Source of the DNA: a virus
Length of the DNA stretch: 10,101 nucleotides
Direction: 5' to 3' (one strand)
UHGV virus genome: UHGV-1546666
Shown here: in pieces, positions 2,206-9,661 of the stretch
Layout of the letters: every line of letters starts with the position of its first letter
How positions within the stretch are numbered: the stretch's first letter is position 1
Made by a program: the position numbers and the translations under genes
The notes under the pieces: model-generated
What the model was told of the DNA's origin: nothing
Database searches by the model: none
What the model saw: the letters and a program-made list of their open reading frames with translations, nothing else

Positions 2206-2307
2206 TCATGGTATTCTGCTCAAAACTAAATTTCTGGAGCGTTTCGTTGGAAGGTATTTGCAGTTTTCGCAGATGATGTCGGTGAAACTTCGTCGCTGTC
2301 GCCTCAT
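2206..2307 (-). pseudogene. ninE: ninE remnant: 26 NinE-like codons followed by unrelated sequence and an early stop (33 aa total)
   Basis: Minus-strand translation from ATG 2307..2305 reads [26 protein letters not shown] then LVLSRIP*. The first 26 residues match my recollection of lambda NinE ([29 protein letters not shown]..., 60 aa). The ATG overlaps the stop of the upstream ORF as ATGA. The ORF is below the 60-aa track threshold. Confidence 0.5.
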
Positions 2308-2906
2308 GCCGCCCTGTCTCCCCATCTTGCTTTCATTGTTTCATTTGCAAATCGCCAGAATCTTCCTTTGTGATATGAGCTTTCGCCATTACAGCAACGA
2401 CTAATTGACGAACTATCAAATCCTTCTCTGACAGCATCCATAGCTGCTTCATAATAAACCTCCTCCCCAGTTTTCATGTCAGTAGAAATAACAGCTTTAC
2501 TGGCAGGATGATCACCACTAAATTTACCTAGCGATATAGGTATTCTTCCATTTTGTTTATATCCGTGCTTTGAGTTTTCAGAATGTGATACCCATTCAAG
2601 GTTTTCAGCCCTATTGTCATCTCTTTGCCCATTTTTGTGATTAACTACCAAGCCATCACAGAACCCTGTACAGAATGCTTTCGCAACTATCCTGTGGGCG
2701 CTGTATTTCTTACCGTATACCTTTATTTGAAGATATCCTGTCGACTTGCACTTGAATGGTTTTACGCTAGTGCCATTAATTATTTTCTTATATGGCCTCT
2801 GTCTGGTTGATGTTACTGTAATTTCCCTCGTAATAGACCTGAAATTTCCTTTATTGCTAACCTGATAAAATGGAATTCCTTCGATATCTACCCAAACCTC
2901 AATCAT
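2304..2906 (-). CDS. HNH homing endonuclease (NUMOD4 motif plus HNH_3-type nuclease motif), 200 aa
   Basis: [21 protein letters not shown] is a NUMOD4-like motif. [11 protein letters not shown]...[25 protein letters not shown] is an HNH_3-type motif (His-Arg, HxNG, DNR, ENLEW). A GGAGG RBS sits 4-5 nt before the ATG, which overlaps the ninB stop. The region is visibly AT-richer than the lambda-core genes. Confidence 0.85.
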
Positions 2907-4147: not shown

Positions 4148-4774
4148 TTAGAGGTCTGCCGCCCATGACAGTTGTTTTACTGGTTCAGGTATCGTCTCAC
4201 CACGGTTAATTCTCGCAGTCATATGGACAAGCTCATCTGCGGCCTTACGGCGTAATTCCGCATCAGTAAGCGCATTGGCCCGCATGTTCTGATACAGGTT
4301 GGTAACCAGCCAGTAGTGCGCGTTTGATTTCCACGGATAAGACTCTGCATCCGGATACAGGCCTCGCTTCCGGCAATACTCGTAAACCATATCAACCAGC
4401 TCGCTGGCGTTTGGCAGCCCGGCGGTAACGGATGCTTCTTCCCGGCACCAGGCGACAAACTGCCCGGGTGATGGCAGGAATGGTCGATTCTGCCGACGGG
4501 CTACGCGCATTCCAGCGTTAACCTGTTCCATTGTGGTGATCCCGTTTTCCCGGAAAGCCAGAACCCACTGGCGGCGGATTTCGTTCAGTTCATTCTGGTC
4601 ACGGTTAGCCAGGCTCGCCGGGAAAGTTGCCAGTAACTGGCTGAACACACCGTTGATGATCTGCGCTACCTGCTGTACCTGCGGCTTTTCGTCGTACTGT
4701 TCCGGCATGTTGTTGGCGATCCGACGCATCTGCTCACGGTCAAAGTTAACCATCTGTGCGGCGATGTTTTTCAT
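4148..4774 (-). CDS. P: Replication protein P (DnaB helicase loader), C-terminally frameshifted: 208 aa ending ...KQLSWAADL
   Basis: Residues 1 to about 202 match lambda P (MKNIAAQMVNFDREQMRRIANNMPEQYDEKPQVQQVAQIINGVF...). Downstream, a shifted frame (4170..4081) encodes MGGRPLNRAQALAKIAEIKAKFGLKGASI*, which is the conserved P C-terminus and ends overlapping the ren start. Confidence 0.85.
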   Translation of the reverse strand: MKNIAAQMVNFDREQMRRIANNMPEQYDEKPQVQQVAQIINGVFSQLLATFPASLANRDQNELNEIRRQWVLAFRENGITTMEQVNAGMRVARRQNRPFLPSPGQFVAWCREEASVTAGLPNASELVDMVYEYCRKRGLYPDAESYPWKSNAHYWLVTNLYQNMRANALTDAELRRKAADELVHMTARINRGETIPEPVKQLSWAADL

Positions 4775-5650
4775 AAATCCACCCCGTAAATCCAGTCAGT
4801 GTTTGTCAGGTCGAGTTTTGGTTTGCTGGCTGTCACGCCTGCCTGTTGCTTGTTACGGTTGATTTCGAGCTGGGTCCACTTGTCGCGGAGTTTGGCCGGA
4901 CTTAGCACGTTACCGGACCAGAAGTTGTCCTGGCAGGCCCAGCGGAACAGCACGCACATGTCGCGGTGGTTACGTCCGTCACGTTCACGCATCAGGCGGA
5001 TATCGTTAGCCCACCCTGCAAAATTCGGTTTTCTGGCTGATGGTGCGATGGTCTTCACCATGTCAAACATCCACTCTGCGGCGGTCAGGTCTTCTGCTGT
5101 TCCCCACTTGCTGCCGCTCTGAATTGCAGCATCCGGTTTAACCACAGAAAGATCGTTTTCTGGCTGGTCAGAGGATTCGCCAGAATTCTCGGACGAATAA
5201 TCTTTTCTTTTTTCTTTTGTAATAGTGTCTTTTGTGTCCCCCTGTTTTGAGGGATAGCAATCCCCTAATTTGAGGGATGTTTTATCCCTCGTTTTGAGGG
5301 ATGCACCATTCTGAGATGTTTTTATTTGGTCCAAACATGCCGCCTTGCTGCTTGATAATATTCATTCTGACGAGTTCTAACTTGGCTTCATTGCACCGTT
5401 TGACAGGTAACTTTGTAATCTCGCTAAGTTGAGAATCGGTGATTCTGTCCATTGGTTTATTCCACCCATAGGTTTTACGCAGAATGGCAAGCAGCACTTT
5501 AAACTGTCGCTTGGTCAGATCTGCGCCTGAATAAGCCTCAATCAGCATATTTGATAGTCTGGCGTAACCATCATCGAGATCTGCCACATTACGCTCCTGT
5601 CCGGCAAAGTTACTTCTGCCGAAGTTGAGTATTTTTGCTGTATTTGTCAT
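4771..5650 (-). pseudogene. O: Replication initiator O, split by a frameshift inside the origin iteron array into an N-terminal 122-aa ORF (5282..5650) and a C-terminal 187-aa ORF (4771..5334)
   Basis: ORF 5282..5650 (MTNTAKILNFGRSNFAGQERNVADLDDGYARLSNMLIEAYSGADLTKRQFK...ISEWCIPQNEG*) matches the lambda O N-terminal domain. ORF 4771..5334 contains KTRDKTSLKLGDCYPSKQGDTKDTITKEKRKDYSSENSGESSDQ... to the C-terminus ...TDWIYGVDL, matching the lambda O linker and C-domain. The two are in different frames and overlap by 53 nt. Confidence 0.8.
5237..5301. repeat. Replication origin iterons (three O-binding repeats) with flanking AT-rich region
   Basis: Three inverted-repeat iterons on the plus strand: tccccctgttttgaggga (5237-5254), tcccctaatttgaggga (5261-5277) and tccctcgttttgaggga (5285-5301). 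The gagggat cores are spaced 23 and 24 bp apart. An A/T-rich tract (about 5200-5235) follows in the direction of O transcription, as in lambda ori. Confidence 0.75.
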
Positions 5651-6448: not shown

Positions 6449-7096
6449 ATGAAAACGATGCATGAAATTATCGGGGAAAGGATCAAGTCCCTTAGAGAAG
6501 CTAAAGGACTTAGCCAGGCTCAATTGGCCAAGCTTTGCGGCTGGGCTGCGCCTTCACGCCTGGGGAACTACGAGTTAGGAACAAGAAAGGTTAGCGCGGA
6601 TGACGCGCTGGTTCTTGGGGCGGCACTCGGCGTATCTCCGGCAAAAATAATGTTTGGCGAGGATTCAGACGCTGTATTTCGCCAATATGAGTACCCGTTA
6701 TTTTCTTCAGTGCAGGCCGGGCCGTTTTCGGAGGTTGGAAGCTACACAGCAAGCGATGCAAAGGCATGGGTCCCAACGACCACAAAAGCCAGCGAAAAAG
6801 CTTTCTGGCTTGAGGTGAAAGGCCATTCTATGACTGCGCCACAGGGCGTAAGGCCGAGTTTTCCTGAGGGTATGCTGATACTCGTTGATCCGGCCGAGCC
6901 GGTAGAGTCTGGGGATTTCTGCGTGGCTTCTGCAAATGGTGATTCAGAGGCAACGTTCAAGAAGTATGAGAAGGATGCAGGGGTTAGTTACTTGGTTCCA
7001 TTGAATCCGGCATACAGAACCCTGGACTGCGATCACACATGCCGCATCATAGGCAAGGTAGTTAAGGCTCAGTGGCCTGAAGAGACGTTTGGATGA
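6449..7096 (+). CDS. cI: CI-type prophage repressor: N-terminal HTH plus C-terminal S24 (LexA-like) autopeptidase domain, 215 aa
   Basis: N-terminal HTH segment [24 protein letters not shown]. Ala-Gly cleavage site in SSVQAGPF. Catalytic Ser in KGHSMTAP and Lys in RIIGKVVKA. Divergent from cro with operators between. Confidence 0.9.
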
Positions 7097-7146
7097 TGGA
7101 TGGTCGCAGAGATGCTCGTAGAGCATACAGCGATGCAGGAGAATTT

Positions 7147-7581
7147 ATGGCACTTAATTTAGAAAGAATATCTTTTATAACCCCATTTGATAGCAGCGAA
7201 GAACCCAACCAACCGACGCTTAATTTTACATGCAATGAATTTCCTGCGCGGCTATCGATTGATTTCAGGGTTGGTATGATCGGGTTGAAACCAAATTCAA
7301 GATATAATTTGGGTATTATGGTAATCCCCGCGCACCTAATTATAAAAAAAGGTGAGGAAATTCAATTCCCTGACGGCTCTTCGGAATCAGTTTCACTTTT
7401 CATCGATACGAAAGATAGCCATTTTGAAACAGGGGTTGGCGGACAGGTAATAGTAACATTGAAAGAAATTAGGGTCCCAGCTAAAGGGCTGTATAGTGTT
7501 ATAGGGATATTGCAAGATAATGAAGACCCTAAAAATGAACTTCATAAAAATGAATCATTTTTCACCGTAGAGCTATTATGA
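7147..7581 (+). CDS. Hypothetical protein A of the cI-linked accessory cassette, about 144 aa, no recognised domain
   Basis: Start chosen at the ATG at 7147 with RBS AGGAG and a 6-nt spacer (MALNLERISFITPFDSSEEPNQ...). The track's longer ORF starting at 7093 lacks a good RBS. AT-rich relative to cI. The stop overlaps the next gene's start (ATGA at 7578-7581). Confidence 0.6.
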   Translation: MALNLERISFITPFDSSEEPNQPTLNFTCNEFPARLSIDFRVGMIGLKPNSRYNLGIMVIPAHLIIKKGEEIQFPDGSSESVSLFIDTKDSHFETGVGGQVIVTLKEIRVPAKGLYSVIGILQDNEDPKNELHKNESFFTVELL

Positions 7582-8198
7582 GTGACGACAGTAATTTAAA
7601 TAATCATGGAAAGCAAGACACCAACATATCTGAAAGCCGGAGGTTGAAGGTTGTTGGCGGTTCCGATTTTGAGGCTGAATTTGATAATTCTCCCACCAAG
7701 GTGCAAAATAATTACATAAAACCGCCACAAACGGAGGAAGAAGTGGGAACGATCAGCAGAGAGGAACTTGATGCTCGCTTAGCTGCTAATAAAGCAGAGA
7801 TGGAGTCTATTGCTTCTTCCATTAGGACTGACATGGCTCTATCTCGTGAAAGCGTTAATGTCCAATTTGCATCACTTAATGCAGCCATAAGCTCTCTATC
7901 GTCCAAGATCGATGGAAAGATGGATAGCGCTGCTGGCGATATAAAAGCAATTAATGGGAGATTCGAAGGAATTCAAGGACAAATAACAGGGGTTAATACC
8001 GCAATTAGTGGTGTTCAGTCGGGTATTTCTATACGATTAGCCATTTTTAGTGTCATTATCGCTGTAATAGTTGCGATTCCCGGGCTGGTATCAGCTTTAA
8101 AGTCAGACCACGCACCTTTGCAACAGCCTTCCACTTTGCAAGCGCCGCCACAAAATACCCAGCCAACAGACAACAAAAAAATCACTCCCCAGCATTAA
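7578..8198 (+). CDS. Hypothetical protein B of the cI-linked cassette, 206 aa: polar N-terminus, Ser/Ala/Gly-rich coiled-coil-like segment, single C-terminal transmembrane helix, Pro/Gln-rich tail
   Basis: Track ORF, translationally coupled to protein A. The hydrophobic stretch RLAIFSVIIAVIVAIPGLVSAL lies near the C-terminus. The middle segment has heptad-like repeats (ASLNAAISSLSSKIDGKMDSAAGDIKAINGRFEGIQGQITGVNTAISGVQSGI). A terminator follows directly. Confidence 0.65.
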   Translation: MSDDSNLNNHGKQDTNISESRRLKVVGGSDFEAEFDNSPTKVQNNYIKPPQTEEEVGTISREELDARLAANKAEMESIASSIRTDMALSRESVNVQFASLNAAISSLSSKIDGKMDSAAGDIKAINGRFEGIQGQITGVNTAISGVQSGISIRLAIFSVIIAVIVAIPGLVSALKSDHAPLQQPSTLQAPPQNTQPTDNKKITPQH

Positions 8199-8206
8199 CG
8201 CATTAA

Positions 8207-8230
8207 CCCGGCCTCAGCGCCGGGTTTTTT
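8207..8230 (+). terminator. Rho-independent terminator closing the cI / protein A / protein B operon
   Basis: Stem cccggc (8207-8212) / gccggg (8219-8224), loop ctcagc, followed by TTTTTT (8225-8230). Confidence 0.6.
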
Positions 8231-8443
8231 GTTGCCTGCACATAACTATCAGGACAGCACCTGCCAGCCAGCCCAAGCCTCTGATTAAATTACTATAATT
8301 CTTAATACAACTCCCATATCCCGCCATCTCGTCACCACCTACTTCGCTCGTTTTTCGAACTTTTCAGCACACCATCCTGCTGTTTCCCCCGCCTTAAGTA
8401 AGCAAACCCATCGCGGGGAAAACTATTTACACAAAAAAATCAT

Positions 8444-8512
8444 ACACATAACGTGTCACACCCTTATTTTACACATTTTGTGATTGACCATTAAATCACA
8501 ATATGTGACTAT
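8444..8512 (+). promoter_or_regulatory. pL-like promoter with oL operators
   Basis: -35 TTGACC (8484-8489), 17-nt spacer, -10 GACTAT (8507-8512; lambda pL has GATACT). Three dyads of the same CACA...TGTG family as oR: acacataacgtgt (8444-8456), cacattttgtg (8472-8482), tcacaatatgtga (8496-8508). Confidence 0.5.
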
Positions 8513-8558
8513 TATTTCCATCAGCAGGACGCTGGTAGCCAAACGGAAAAGATTGGCA

Positions 8559-8605
8559 GGCTCTTTAAACAACGTCGAACACTCGACTACGTGGCTGAAA
8601 AGCCA
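8559..8605 (+). promoter_or_regulatory. nutL-like site (boxA plus boxB hairpin) in the pL-to-N leader
   Basis: boxA-like GGCTCTTTAAACAAC (about 8559-8573) and hairpin UGGCU-GAAA-AGCCA (8592-8605). Both parallel the nutR candidate. Confidence 0.5.
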
Positions 8606-8703
8606 GATCACCCAACCACATAAGCTGTGGGATGCAATGCCGAAGCAACCGTCTCAGGAGGAGCTTCGAGATTGCATCGCCAAAGTTTATTCGGGAGGAA
8701 TCT

Positions 8704-8976
8704 ATGTCCAGAAAAACAGAATTTAAAGGCACCGCAGCTTCTCGCCGTAGAGCTCGTCGCGCAAACCTGCAAAGTCAGGAGTCGATTAGCTCCGACAAGC
8801 TACACAGGCCAACCCCTTCACGAGTGGTCTTGCAATGCAAGCGCAAACCAGCAATGAGAGCAGAAGTTATAACTCTGACAACGTTGACCAGAAAATATGA
8901 AGGTTCAACTTGTCTTCCAAACGTAGCCATTTACGCTGCAGGCTACCGTAAATCCAAACAACTGACAGCAAGATGA
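8704..8976 (+). CDS. N: N-like transcription antiterminator, about 90 aa, with arginine-rich motif
   Basis: Track ORF trimmed to the ATG at 8704 (RBS GGGAGGA). The N-terminus MSRKTEFKGTAASRRRARRANLQ carries an arginine-rich motif that resembles the phage 21 / P22 class of N proteins (from memory). Located downstream of the pL and nutL candidates. Confidence 0.7.
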   Translation: MSRKTEFKGTAASRRRARRANLQSQESISSDKLHRPTPSRVVLQCKRKPAMRAEVITLTTLTRKYEGSTCLPNVAIYAAGYRKSKQLTAR

Positions 8977-9037
8977 CTTGTGTTGGTCGCCAGAAAATGA
9001 AATTAGGCAGCAAACCACTTATTTGAGAGGAATTAAT

Positions 9038-9661
9038 ATGTCATCAATCCGCTTAACTACGAGAATGAAAGAGGAAATCGCTCGTAACGCTTTAATTAAG
9101 TCCGGGGTGTTCACTGAACTTGAAGAAGTAACAAAGTTAAAGAACCAGCTTGCACTTGACGCCAGAGTTATTGCGTTTGGCGGGAAAAAGAAAACCGAAG
9201 AAGTGGACCAGCTGGCATCAAAGTTAATGGCTGCAAGTGAGGAACTTCAAAAGCTGGGATGTTCATTTTACTCATGCGATGTCAGTTCATGTTCGATTTA
9301 TCTGACTGTATCTGGAAGAAGGGTTGGCTGGCATTCATACGGAAAAGACGGCAACGGTGAAGATATATTGCTCCCTACCCCCGACAAAGATAAATGCATG
9401 TTTGACGCAGAACACAAAATAACAAAAAGGTTTGATGAAATCTGCGCATTGCAACAAAAACTTGAAGCCAGGAAAAAGGATATAGAATCAAACGTATGGG
9501 CTGCTTTGAACTCAGTCACAACAGTTAAGCGACTTATTGAAGTTTGGCCTGAAAGCAAAGAGTTGCTACCAAAAGAAGCAGATAAAGCAAGTGCAGCACT
9601 TCCTGCTTTACGGGTAGAAGATTTGAATAAGATGATTGGACTTCCTTCCGAGGCCGCATAA
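9038..9661 (+). CDS. Hypothetical protein, about 207 aa, between N and the first leftward terminator
   Basis: Track ORF trimmed to the ATG at 9038 (RBS GAGAGGA; MSSIRLTTRMKEEIARNALIKSG...). No family recognised. It occupies the slot where lambda carries ral / sieB / ea10-type accessory genes. Confidence 0.6.
   Translation: MSSIRLTTRMKEEIARNALIKSGVFTELEEVTKLKNQLALDARVIAFGGKKKTEEVDQLASKLMAASEELQKLGCSFYSCDVSSCSIYLTVSGRRVGWHSYGKDGNGEDILLPTPDKDKCMFDAEHKITKRFDEICALQQKLEARKKDIESNVWAALNSVTTVKRLIEVWPESKELLPKEADKASAALPALRVEDLNKMIGLPSEAA

Follow-up and report, generated by a model that had tools for sequence, protein, structure and literature searches.

A two-gene cassette was identified behind the cI repressor gene in a 10,101-nt stretch of the UHGV virus genome UHGV-1546666 (the window), which represents the immunity and early region of a lambdoid prophage in an orientation inverted with respect to the lambda map. 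The cassette consists of gene A (7147-7581, plus strand) and gene B (7578-8198, plus strand). Judged from sequence comparison, it appears to be a mobile, modular pair and is a credible candidate for a new prophage-encoded phage-exclusion system. Our tentative interpretation is that it may form an exclusion module, expressed in the lysogen, in which a sensor is combined with a membrane effector. New here are the existence of a single Enterobacterales family that shares the B core, its association with at least five partner classes, the switching of the B N-terminus together with the partner, the occurrence of the pair in other slots, and the presence of alternative cargo behind the same cI allele.

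The cI-A-B operon

The upstream gene of the operon, cI (6449-7096, plus strand), was assigned from the list of open reading frames (ORFs) and from homology; it encodes a 215-aa repressor of the LexA/S24 family and of the VT1-Sakai/mEpX1 immunity type. It is followed by a junction and leader segment (7078-7146, plus strand) that comprises the final 19 nt of cI and a 50-nt spacer with the AGGAG ribosome-binding site of gene A, then by A, which encodes a soluble protein of 144 aa, and by B, which encodes a predicted tail-anchored inner-membrane protein of 206 aa. An intrinsic terminator (8205-8232, plus strand), the equivalent of Timm, closes the cI-A-B transcript. It has an 8-bp stem with six G-C pairs followed by a T-run (-16.7 kcal/mol, z = -2.1), and its homologue in phage HK542 is annotated as Timm. 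The stop codon of A and the start codon of B share an ATGA at 7578-7581. The first-pass annotation, made from the DNA sequence alone, had described two genes in the same orientation behind cI, with an ATGA overlap and a strong terminator; both the coordinates and a pattern scan agreed with this description.

The pattern scan revealed no terminator-like site on the plus strand between cI and position 8205, and Rfam identified no RNA family within the cassette. An internal promoter-like site (7681-7709) was disregarded, since it scored weakly (9/12) and such sites were fewer in the region than in shuffled sequences. An alternative start codon for A, the ATG at 7093, would give a 162-aa protein whose reading frame overlaps the cI stop codon in an ATGA, and this is the version annotated by PGAP. 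The start at 7147 is the better one, since the A homologues from other genera are 143-144 aa long and align from the Met encoded there, AGGAG lies 6 nt 5' of it, and the A protein of HK542 is annotated as 144 aa.

The GC content was 51.9% for cI, 37.7% for A (32% at third codon positions) and 43.2% for B (37% at third codon positions), which confirmed the earlier remark that the cassette is richer in AT than cI. Comparison with orthologues indicated purifying selection on both genes, with non-synonymous values (pN) of 0.1-0.4 against saturated synonymous values (pS) of 0.7-0.8; for A compared to the orthologue at locus L041, pN was 0.11 and pS 0.80, and for B compared to that at L004 the dN/dS ratio was approximately 0.2. 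The selection marks A and B as real genes, and gene order and the placement of the terminator predict that they are co-transcribed with cI.

Cargo exchange at the cI-downstream slot

The right-hand neighbours of the cassette are the oL/pL region (approximately 8440-8515), placed from its homology with the operators annotated in VT1-Sakai, and the antiterminator gene N (8704-8976, plus strand; Pfam N_peptide). Together these neighbours (8440-8976, plus strand) define the slot as the rexAB-equivalent position. The cI gene of the window has 94-95% DNA identity to those of VT1-Sakai and mEpX1, and cI plus the oL/pL flank has 90-95% identity to these phages. When the window was compared to phages that carry the same cI allele, homology ended at the cI stop codon (7097) and resumed at the first base of the terminator (8205/8206).

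A survey of slot occupants in related prophages, which had been suggested together with the first-pass annotation, revealed different cargo behind this allele. In VT1-Sakai the slot contains H0053, a member of PHROG 12602 with no assigned function, and in mEpX1 (locus L059, 3347-4755) it contains two genes that PADLOC models assigned to the candidate defence system PDC-M63A/B (E = 2e-41 and 8e-45), of which the first also matched Pfam DUF6932. The cassette, for its part, was found in E. coli behind at least four repressor contexts, namely repressors of the VT1-Sakai type, of the lambda type, of a 231-aa LexA-family type, and of the 933W type with an additional 113-aa ORF; a more distant version lies behind three different repressors at loci L096-L098. 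The same cI allele with different cargo, and the same cassette behind these several repressors, support the earlier suggestion that cI and the cassette were acquired separately.

At locus L016 the cassette is preceded by a 19-bp relic of the 3' end of cI (..EETFG and stop codon), although it is located behind the non-cI 113-aa ORF. The homology breakpoints, the presence of the cassette behind many repressors and this relic argue that the 3' end of cI (..QWPEETFG and stop codon) and the terminator are the recombination anchors of the slot; the cI-junction and leader segment travels with the cassette. A 38-bp stretch (7078-7115), consisting of the final 19 nt of cI and the cassette leader, was 100% identical in approximately 190 E. 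coli genomes and in many 933W-like Shiga toxin (Stx) phages; these lack the cassette, and the DNA around the stretch has no annotation. In L016 it follows the 113-aa ORF instead of cI. The stretch resembles either a boundary at which recombination takes place or a scar left by a cassette carried in the past. The commonest type of cassette-bearing E. coli prophage, represented by L016 (3158-3499) and approximately 20 other IMG/VR loci, has the 113-aa ORF (MAFTDLEYQAVKK...) between a 235-aa repressor and A, and therefore three cargo genes. This repressor is probably of the 933W cI type; the Stk kinase of 933W is likewise encoded in the cI-downstream slot.

Owen et al. (PMC8585504, citing Degnan et al. 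2007) described the interval between cI and N as a hotspot of mosaicism, in which RexAB and BstA are encoded; lysogens of lambdoid phages transcribe the slot behind cI strongly (PMC8585504). Gene order, swapped cargo and this literature all supported the view, already put forward in the first-pass annotation, that the cassette occupies a rexAB-equivalent hotspot.

Distribution and previous records

The cassette segment 7069-8241 has 98.8% DNA identity to phages HK542 and HK244, where the same cassette occupies the same slot behind a lambda-type cI and the terminator is annotated as Timm. The corresponding ORFs, HK542c105 and HK542c104 (ABO40688/ABO40687 and AFH20417/AFH20416; records EF120457/8 and JQ086373), are both annotated as hypothetical, as was the full-length cassette in each of the 49 complete E. 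coli genomes, from a total of 5,426, in which it was detected. The cassette has thus long been public as sequence, through HK542, HK244 and the PHROG families 5893 and 5820, and its biology is uncharacterised in the literature searched. The earlier description of the module as undescribed consequently holds for its biology, for which no paper was found, but not for its sequence.

The pair was also located away from repressors, adjoining tail genes in myovirus-like prophages (L047, L050/51, L006, L011 and L063). A P2-like prophage of Xenorhabdus carries it between the genes for the tail fibre and the sheath, an interval that we take, from the established P2 gene order, to be the Z/fun position. 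Z/fun is listed as a defence locus (PMC13586616). A scan of one genome per species detected one locus only. For a locus scan with the A-type proteins a subset was used, an alignment of all of them being too divergent.

The B family and its interchangeable partners

At 90% identity the B family resolved into 67 clusters, whose proteins are unnamed and come without exception from Enterobacterales. In most cases a prophage repressor gene was directly followed by a small gene and then the B copy; repressor-adjacent homologues were found in Cedecea, Yersinia, Pectobacterium, Salmonella, Klebsiella, Enterobacter, Pantoea-type and other prophages. Modularity was assessed by comparison of 14 diverse loci, at which the B cores, the upstream partners and the N-terminal regions of B (41-115 aa) were each clustered by BLAST.

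Across the 14 loci the coiled-coil and anchor core of B formed a single cluster, and the partners formed five unrelated clusters. These partner classes were the A-type immunoglobulin (Ig)-like proteins of the window, the Klebsiella-type loci, Cedecea and others; zinc-ribbon proteins with a CxxC...CxxC motif (PHROG 4293); two classes that each consist of proteins of approximately 97 aa; and a 149-aa Salmonella protein, which may be a very distant A-type protein. No N-terminal cluster of B spanned two partner classes. The identity of the core did not track the partner class: the core of L042, which is paired with a zinc-ribbon protein, was 79% identical to that of the window, whereas the core of the A-paired Cedecea locus L004 was 65% identical. 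Comparison of the A-type and approximately 97-aa partners with hhalign revealed no relation, and a shared strand motif (RISF) spotted by eye in the two partner types was without statistical support.

Every A-type gene with readable downstream DNA (the window, L004, L034, L041, L067, L068 and L096-L098) was followed by an overlapping gene of the B family; the B genes of L067, L068 and L096-L098 matched the B profile with E values of 1e-24 to 1e-37. At the Xenorhabdus locus L011, which is at a contig edge, the B match is closely preceded by an A-type gene (PHROG 5893, E = 2e-15). All nine A-type loci in which the N-terminus of B could be read contained the motif [KR]hxV[VIL].G[ST][DG][FL]...F in that region. 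The simplest reading of these sequence patterns is that the partner and the N-terminal segment of B would bind each other and for this reason be exchanged together, as a single module. Recombination also shuffles the effector end of B, as argued by the divergence of L098 (3428-3847) and L096 (3428-4003), whose B alleles are identical in the N-terminal half and differ in the C-terminal coiled-coil and anchor half (139 aa versus 191 aa).

Predicted structures of A and B

Protein A matched phrog_5893 over 136 of 140 positions (E = 2e-50), a family with no assigned function. It had no signal peptide and no hydrophobic segment (maximum Kyte-Doolittle value of 1.0), no Pfam family was detected at E≤1, no NCBIfam hit was above threshold and PADLOC gave no match, in agreement with the earlier description of a soluble protein of 144 aa with no recognisable motif. 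AlphaFold2 modelling from a nine-sequence alignment yielded a seven-strand all-beta fold, with a predicted local distance difference test (pLDDT) score of 70.7 and a predicted template modelling score of 0.65; A is accordingly predicted to be a cytoplasmic Ig-like beta-sandwich. When the A profile was searched against 1.84 billion representative proteins, just 23 matches were obtained, of which approximately 15 were small prophage proteins of 136-153 aa and the others Ig repeats (He_PIG, Big_9) of giant adhesins. The matches to adhesin repeats point to a generic Ig-like fold and not to a function. Comparison of the A model with a viral structure library returned uncharacterised small phage proteins, and a profile search against solved structures gave TRPM7 noise only.

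Protein B matched phrog_5820 over 199 of 200 positions (E = 3e-76), a family that also has no assigned function, and nothing above threshold was found in Pfam or NCBIfam. Four regions were distinguished: a disordered region whose variable sequence changes along with the partner class (residues 1-59), a conserved heptad-repeat helix (60-149), a transmembrane helix (153-175) and a Pro/Gln-rich tail (176-206). The AlphaFold2 model (mean pLDDT of 59) had low-confidence coil at residues 1-60 and 175-206, one helix at 61-142 and a second at 150-174, and hydrophobicity peaked at residues 154-172 (19-residue Kyte-Doolittle mean of 2.7). The disordered N-terminus, heptad segment and C-terminal transmembrane helix noted in the first-pass annotation were therefore all recovered. 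A literal seven-residue repeat, GKMDSAA/GDIKAIN/GRFEGIQ/GQITGVN/TAISGVQ/SGISIRL, continues into the membrane helix, and some homologues contain exact seven-residue insertions. Isoleucine at both core heptad positions favours trimers in designed GCN4 variants. Since Ile dominates both core positions in B, the protein probably oligomerises through this Ile-rich helix, which runs straight into the membrane helix.

With its single C-terminal transmembrane helix and no signal peptide, B is predicted to be a tail-anchored inner-membrane protein whose bulk is cytoplasmic. Certain members of the family (L098 and L067) end 0-6 residues past the membrane helix; together with the absence of a signal peptide, this argues that the bulk of B is cytoplasmic and that the periplasmic tail is dispensable. 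A Pro-rich motif located after the membrane helix, P..IIQVP, is conserved in many members of the family and is degenerate in the window copy.

Profile searches of B against solved structures gave only coiled-coil-type noise (SmhB, HA2, sigma-1 and ApoE). The helix-to-membrane segment had weak, recurrent local similarity to alpha-pore-forming toxins (alpha-PFTs): MakE was matched by 16 of 23 members (best E = 5e-6), and the SmhB match (E = 0.014) extended across 58 profile positions, with an alignable GIN.AI.G...hydrophobic stretch. At full length B did not score as a member of these families, at 15.4 bits for MakE (curated cut-off of 360) and 14.3 bits for MakA (cut-off of 320). The C-terminal 95 residues of SlaB, an archaeal S-layer stalk protein, were matched by 17 of 23 members (best E = 2e-4), at 19 bits against a cut-off of 700.

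Comparison with known systems

The cassette resembles lambda rexA-rexB in its location after cI and before Timm and pL/N, and in its composition of two lysogen genes, one for a soluble cytoplasmic protein and one for an inner-membrane protein, in this case by prediction. Placement between cI and Timm, co-transcribed with cI, was indicated by the gene order, the terminator and homology to the immunity regions of HK542 and VT1-Sakai. The proteins themselves share no sequence similarity with the Rex proteins. RexB is a polytopic membrane protein with four helices, RexA is a DNA-binding protein of approximately 280 aa, and together they exclude T4 rII mutants and other phages by membrane depolarisation. 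A is a 144-aa protein with a predicted Ig-like fold and no Pfam RexA match at E≤1; B had no RexB match in Pfam or PADLOC, and its long coiled coil leads to just one hydrophobic helix, at the C-terminus. The DNA binding of RexA is also reported by Adams et al. 2024, as cited in PMC12315714.

BstA of the Salmonella prophage BTP1 is a proven abortive-infection protein encoded at the cI-downstream position (PMC8585504). Both BstA and PDC-M63 are cargo of the same slot as the cassette, with PDC-M63A/B located behind the cI allele of the window, but their proteins are unrelated to A and B, and BstA is a single gene product that acts at phage replication sites. The PADLOC-DB v2.0.0 hidden Markov models gave no match at E≤1 for A or B and none for the alternative partners; one weak match, to LeoC (E = 0.0013), was obtained with a distant B homologue only. 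With nothing above threshold in Pfam, NCBIfam or PADLOC, the previous statement that A and B correspond neither to RexAB nor to a named defence system held.

The ClyA family (MakE/MakA and SmhB) is similar to B in having a small-residue-rich amphipathic helix (GIN.AI.G) that leads into a hydrophobic, membrane-inserting segment. However, B has 206 aa compared to approximately 350-370 aa, has neither a head hairpin nor a helical-bundle tail domain, and scored 15-19 bits against cut-offs of 320-360. SlaB and the E. coli proteins ElaB and YqjD resemble B in that one anchor at the C-terminus follows a long helix or coiled coil, but there was no family-level homology and no DUF883 match, and the organisms and biology are different. 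The check by remote homology and structure prediction that had been proposed with the first-pass annotation thus delivered models, an Ig-like fold for A and a helix with an anchor for B, and no homologue of characterised function, in defence or otherwise.

Proposed function and alternative explanations

In the proposed mechanism, A and B would constitute a mobile accessory (moron) unit whose transcription in the lysogen starts with that of cI at pRM/pRE and ends at the Timm-like terminator. The N-terminal 150 or so residues of B would face the cytoplasm, with the anchor in the inner membrane. A would dock on the variable N-terminal region of B, possibly by beta-strand addition of the LKVVGGSDFEAEF motif onto the edge of the A sandwich, and would act as a specificity, sensor or regulatory subunit. 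On infection the partner might recognise a phage product or release B, after which a B oligomer could perturb the inner membrane and lead to abortive infection or to an early block of heterologous superinfecting phages. Gene structure, operon placement, purifying selection, predicted folds, the distribution of the family, co-switching of the partner and the B N-terminus, and slot swapping are established from the sequences; from these we infer A-B binding, B oligomerisation, the trigger, membrane damage and any anti-phage effect. The interpretation draws on placement equivalent to that of rexAB and bstA, cargo swapping, the linkage of the two genes, modularity, topology, the occurrence in a Z/fun-like slot, the weak alpha-PFT similarity and purifying selection.

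Several observations weigh against an exclusion function. There was no significant match of A or B to any defence family in PADLOC, Pfam or NCBIfam; a search of the literature on A and B, their accession numbers, HK244 and HK542 found no paper and no reported phenotype; and the sampled loci of the family were all in prophages, with none in a chromosomal defence island. Genes unrelated to defence are also carried in the cI-N slot, and RexAB has a further role, in the passage from lysogeny to lytic growth (Thomason et al. 2021, as cited in PMC12315714). The fold of A is a generic Ig-like sandwich that lacks an informative structural neighbour, in a model of moderate confidence. The alpha-PFT and SlaB similarities of B lie far below the curated cut-offs, as the composition of a coiled coil plus a hydrophobic helix would give, and are taken as a lead and not as homology. 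Finally, co-switching of the partner and the B N-terminus would be equally expected of a cognate toxin-antitoxin pair, so that the two ideas overlap.

The tail-anchored coiled-coil architecture of B, its weak MakE/MakA/SmhB and SlaB-like matches and the presence of virulence and fitness genes in moron slots would fit a role in lysogenic conversion or host physiology unrelated to phages, either as an ElaB/YqjD-like scaffold or as an alpha-PFT-related membrane-stress or virulence factor; toxins and partition systems have been reported from P2 hotspots (PMC9122126). We regard such a role as unlikely, since neither DUF883 (ElaB/YqjD) nor the ClyA-family models were matched in Pfam even at E≤1, B, approximately half as large as an alpha-PFT subunit, contains a single hydrophobic helix in place of a hairpin, and the family is confined to prophage slots with the rapid partner swapping that is typical of conflict systems. 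Alternatively, the pair may serve the life cycle of the prophage itself by tuning induction, lysis timing or the lysogeny-lytic switch, as RexA and RexB also do; its predicted co-transcription with the repressor gene would suit this idea, as would the cited aid of RexAB to the lysogenic-to-lytic transition. Yet the repressors that precede the pair are many and unrelated, and in the tail modules of myovirus-like prophages it has no repressor nearby. Dependence on a single regulatory circuit is hence disfavoured, and we consider this explanation quite improbable.

Superinfection exclusion at the entry step, in which B at the inner membrane would block genome injection as do P22 SieA, T4 Imm and HK97 gp15, with A as an accessory, has marginally less to commend it. 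B is predicted to be an inner-membrane protein made by the prophage in the lysogen, its P..IIQVP motif could reach the periplasm in many members, and the pair also occurs in moron slots adjoining tail genes. Nearly all of the mass of A and B is nevertheless predicted to be cytoplasmic, some B members are essentially without a periplasmic tail, the tail motif of the window copy is degenerate, and the known entry blockers are single genes with no class-swapped soluble cytoplasmic partner. The cytoplasmic mass, the dispensable tail and the combination of a constant effector with swappable partners led us to prefer a Rex-like model, with a cytoplasmic sensor and a membrane effector, over an entry block. 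The translational coupling of the genes with the partner first, the joint switching of partner class and B N-terminus in the manner of cognate antitoxin-toxin pairs, and the retention of an intact cI-A-B by a prophage with a broken O gene would each be expected of pure addiction, in which B would be a membrane toxin that is restrained by its partner and stabilises the prophage without sensing phages. This is very unlikely: scans of Pfam, PHROG, PADLOC and NCBIfam gave no homology to a known toxin or antitoxin, the partner is not obviously labile or DNA-binding, and many toxin-antitoxin modules act in defence anyway, which would bring addiction close to the sensor and effector model.

A broader extension of the sensor and effector model is that the B family may be the conserved effector of an unrecognised modular class of prophage immunity. 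B would then be an oligomeric, tail-anchored, minimal alpha-PFT-like permeabiliser served by interchangeable cytoplasmic sensors (an Ig-like sandwich, a zinc ribbon or a small alpha/beta protein) that dock on cognate N-terminal segments, and re-targeting would occur by swapping a sensor and adaptor module of approximately 0.6 kb. This extension is doubtful. If the function is defence, the cassette would represent a sequence-novel effector type, a tail-anchored coiled coil, and a clean case in nature of sensors being exchanged while the effector stays constant, which would help in understanding how prophage immunity diversifies and in predicting failures of phage therapy in Klebsiella, Enterobacter and E. 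coli. Should the function be a different one, A and B would still be a widespread, lysogen-expressed membrane protein pair, which is present in the cI-downstream slot of approximately 1% of complete E. coli genomes and has relatives in prophages across the Enterobacterales.

Other features of the window

The plus strand carries, in order, cI, A, B, the terminator, oL/pL, N, a gene with an Nmad5 domain, and the cIII thermoregulator with cIII. The minus strand encodes a Rha/KilAC antirepressor, a P63C protein, an HNH/NUMOD4 endonuclease, NinB, a DUF7301 protein, Ren, P, O, cII and Cro. The gene directly 3' of N in the pL operon (8978-9661, plus strand) encodes a 226-aa protein with a nucleotide modification associated domain 5 (Nmad5; E = 1e-68), and its homologue at the equivalent place in HK542 is annotated as hypothetical. 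The HNH/NUMOD4 homing-endonuclease-like gene (2304-2906, minus strand) adjoins ninB in the nin region, where the local GC content falls to approximately 35-39%.

The replication gene O (4771-5650, minus strand) is split. A 20-bp deletion at 5283-5300 removes one iteron of the origin (CATCCCTC/AAAACGAGGGA), and the resulting frameshift breaks the gene into an N-terminal ORF of 122 aa and a second, C-terminal one; cI-A-B is intact. The remainder of O is identical at 865 of 880 positions to the intact 299-aa O gene of L058. The prophage may be defective in replication, or the deletion in O may be an assembly error.

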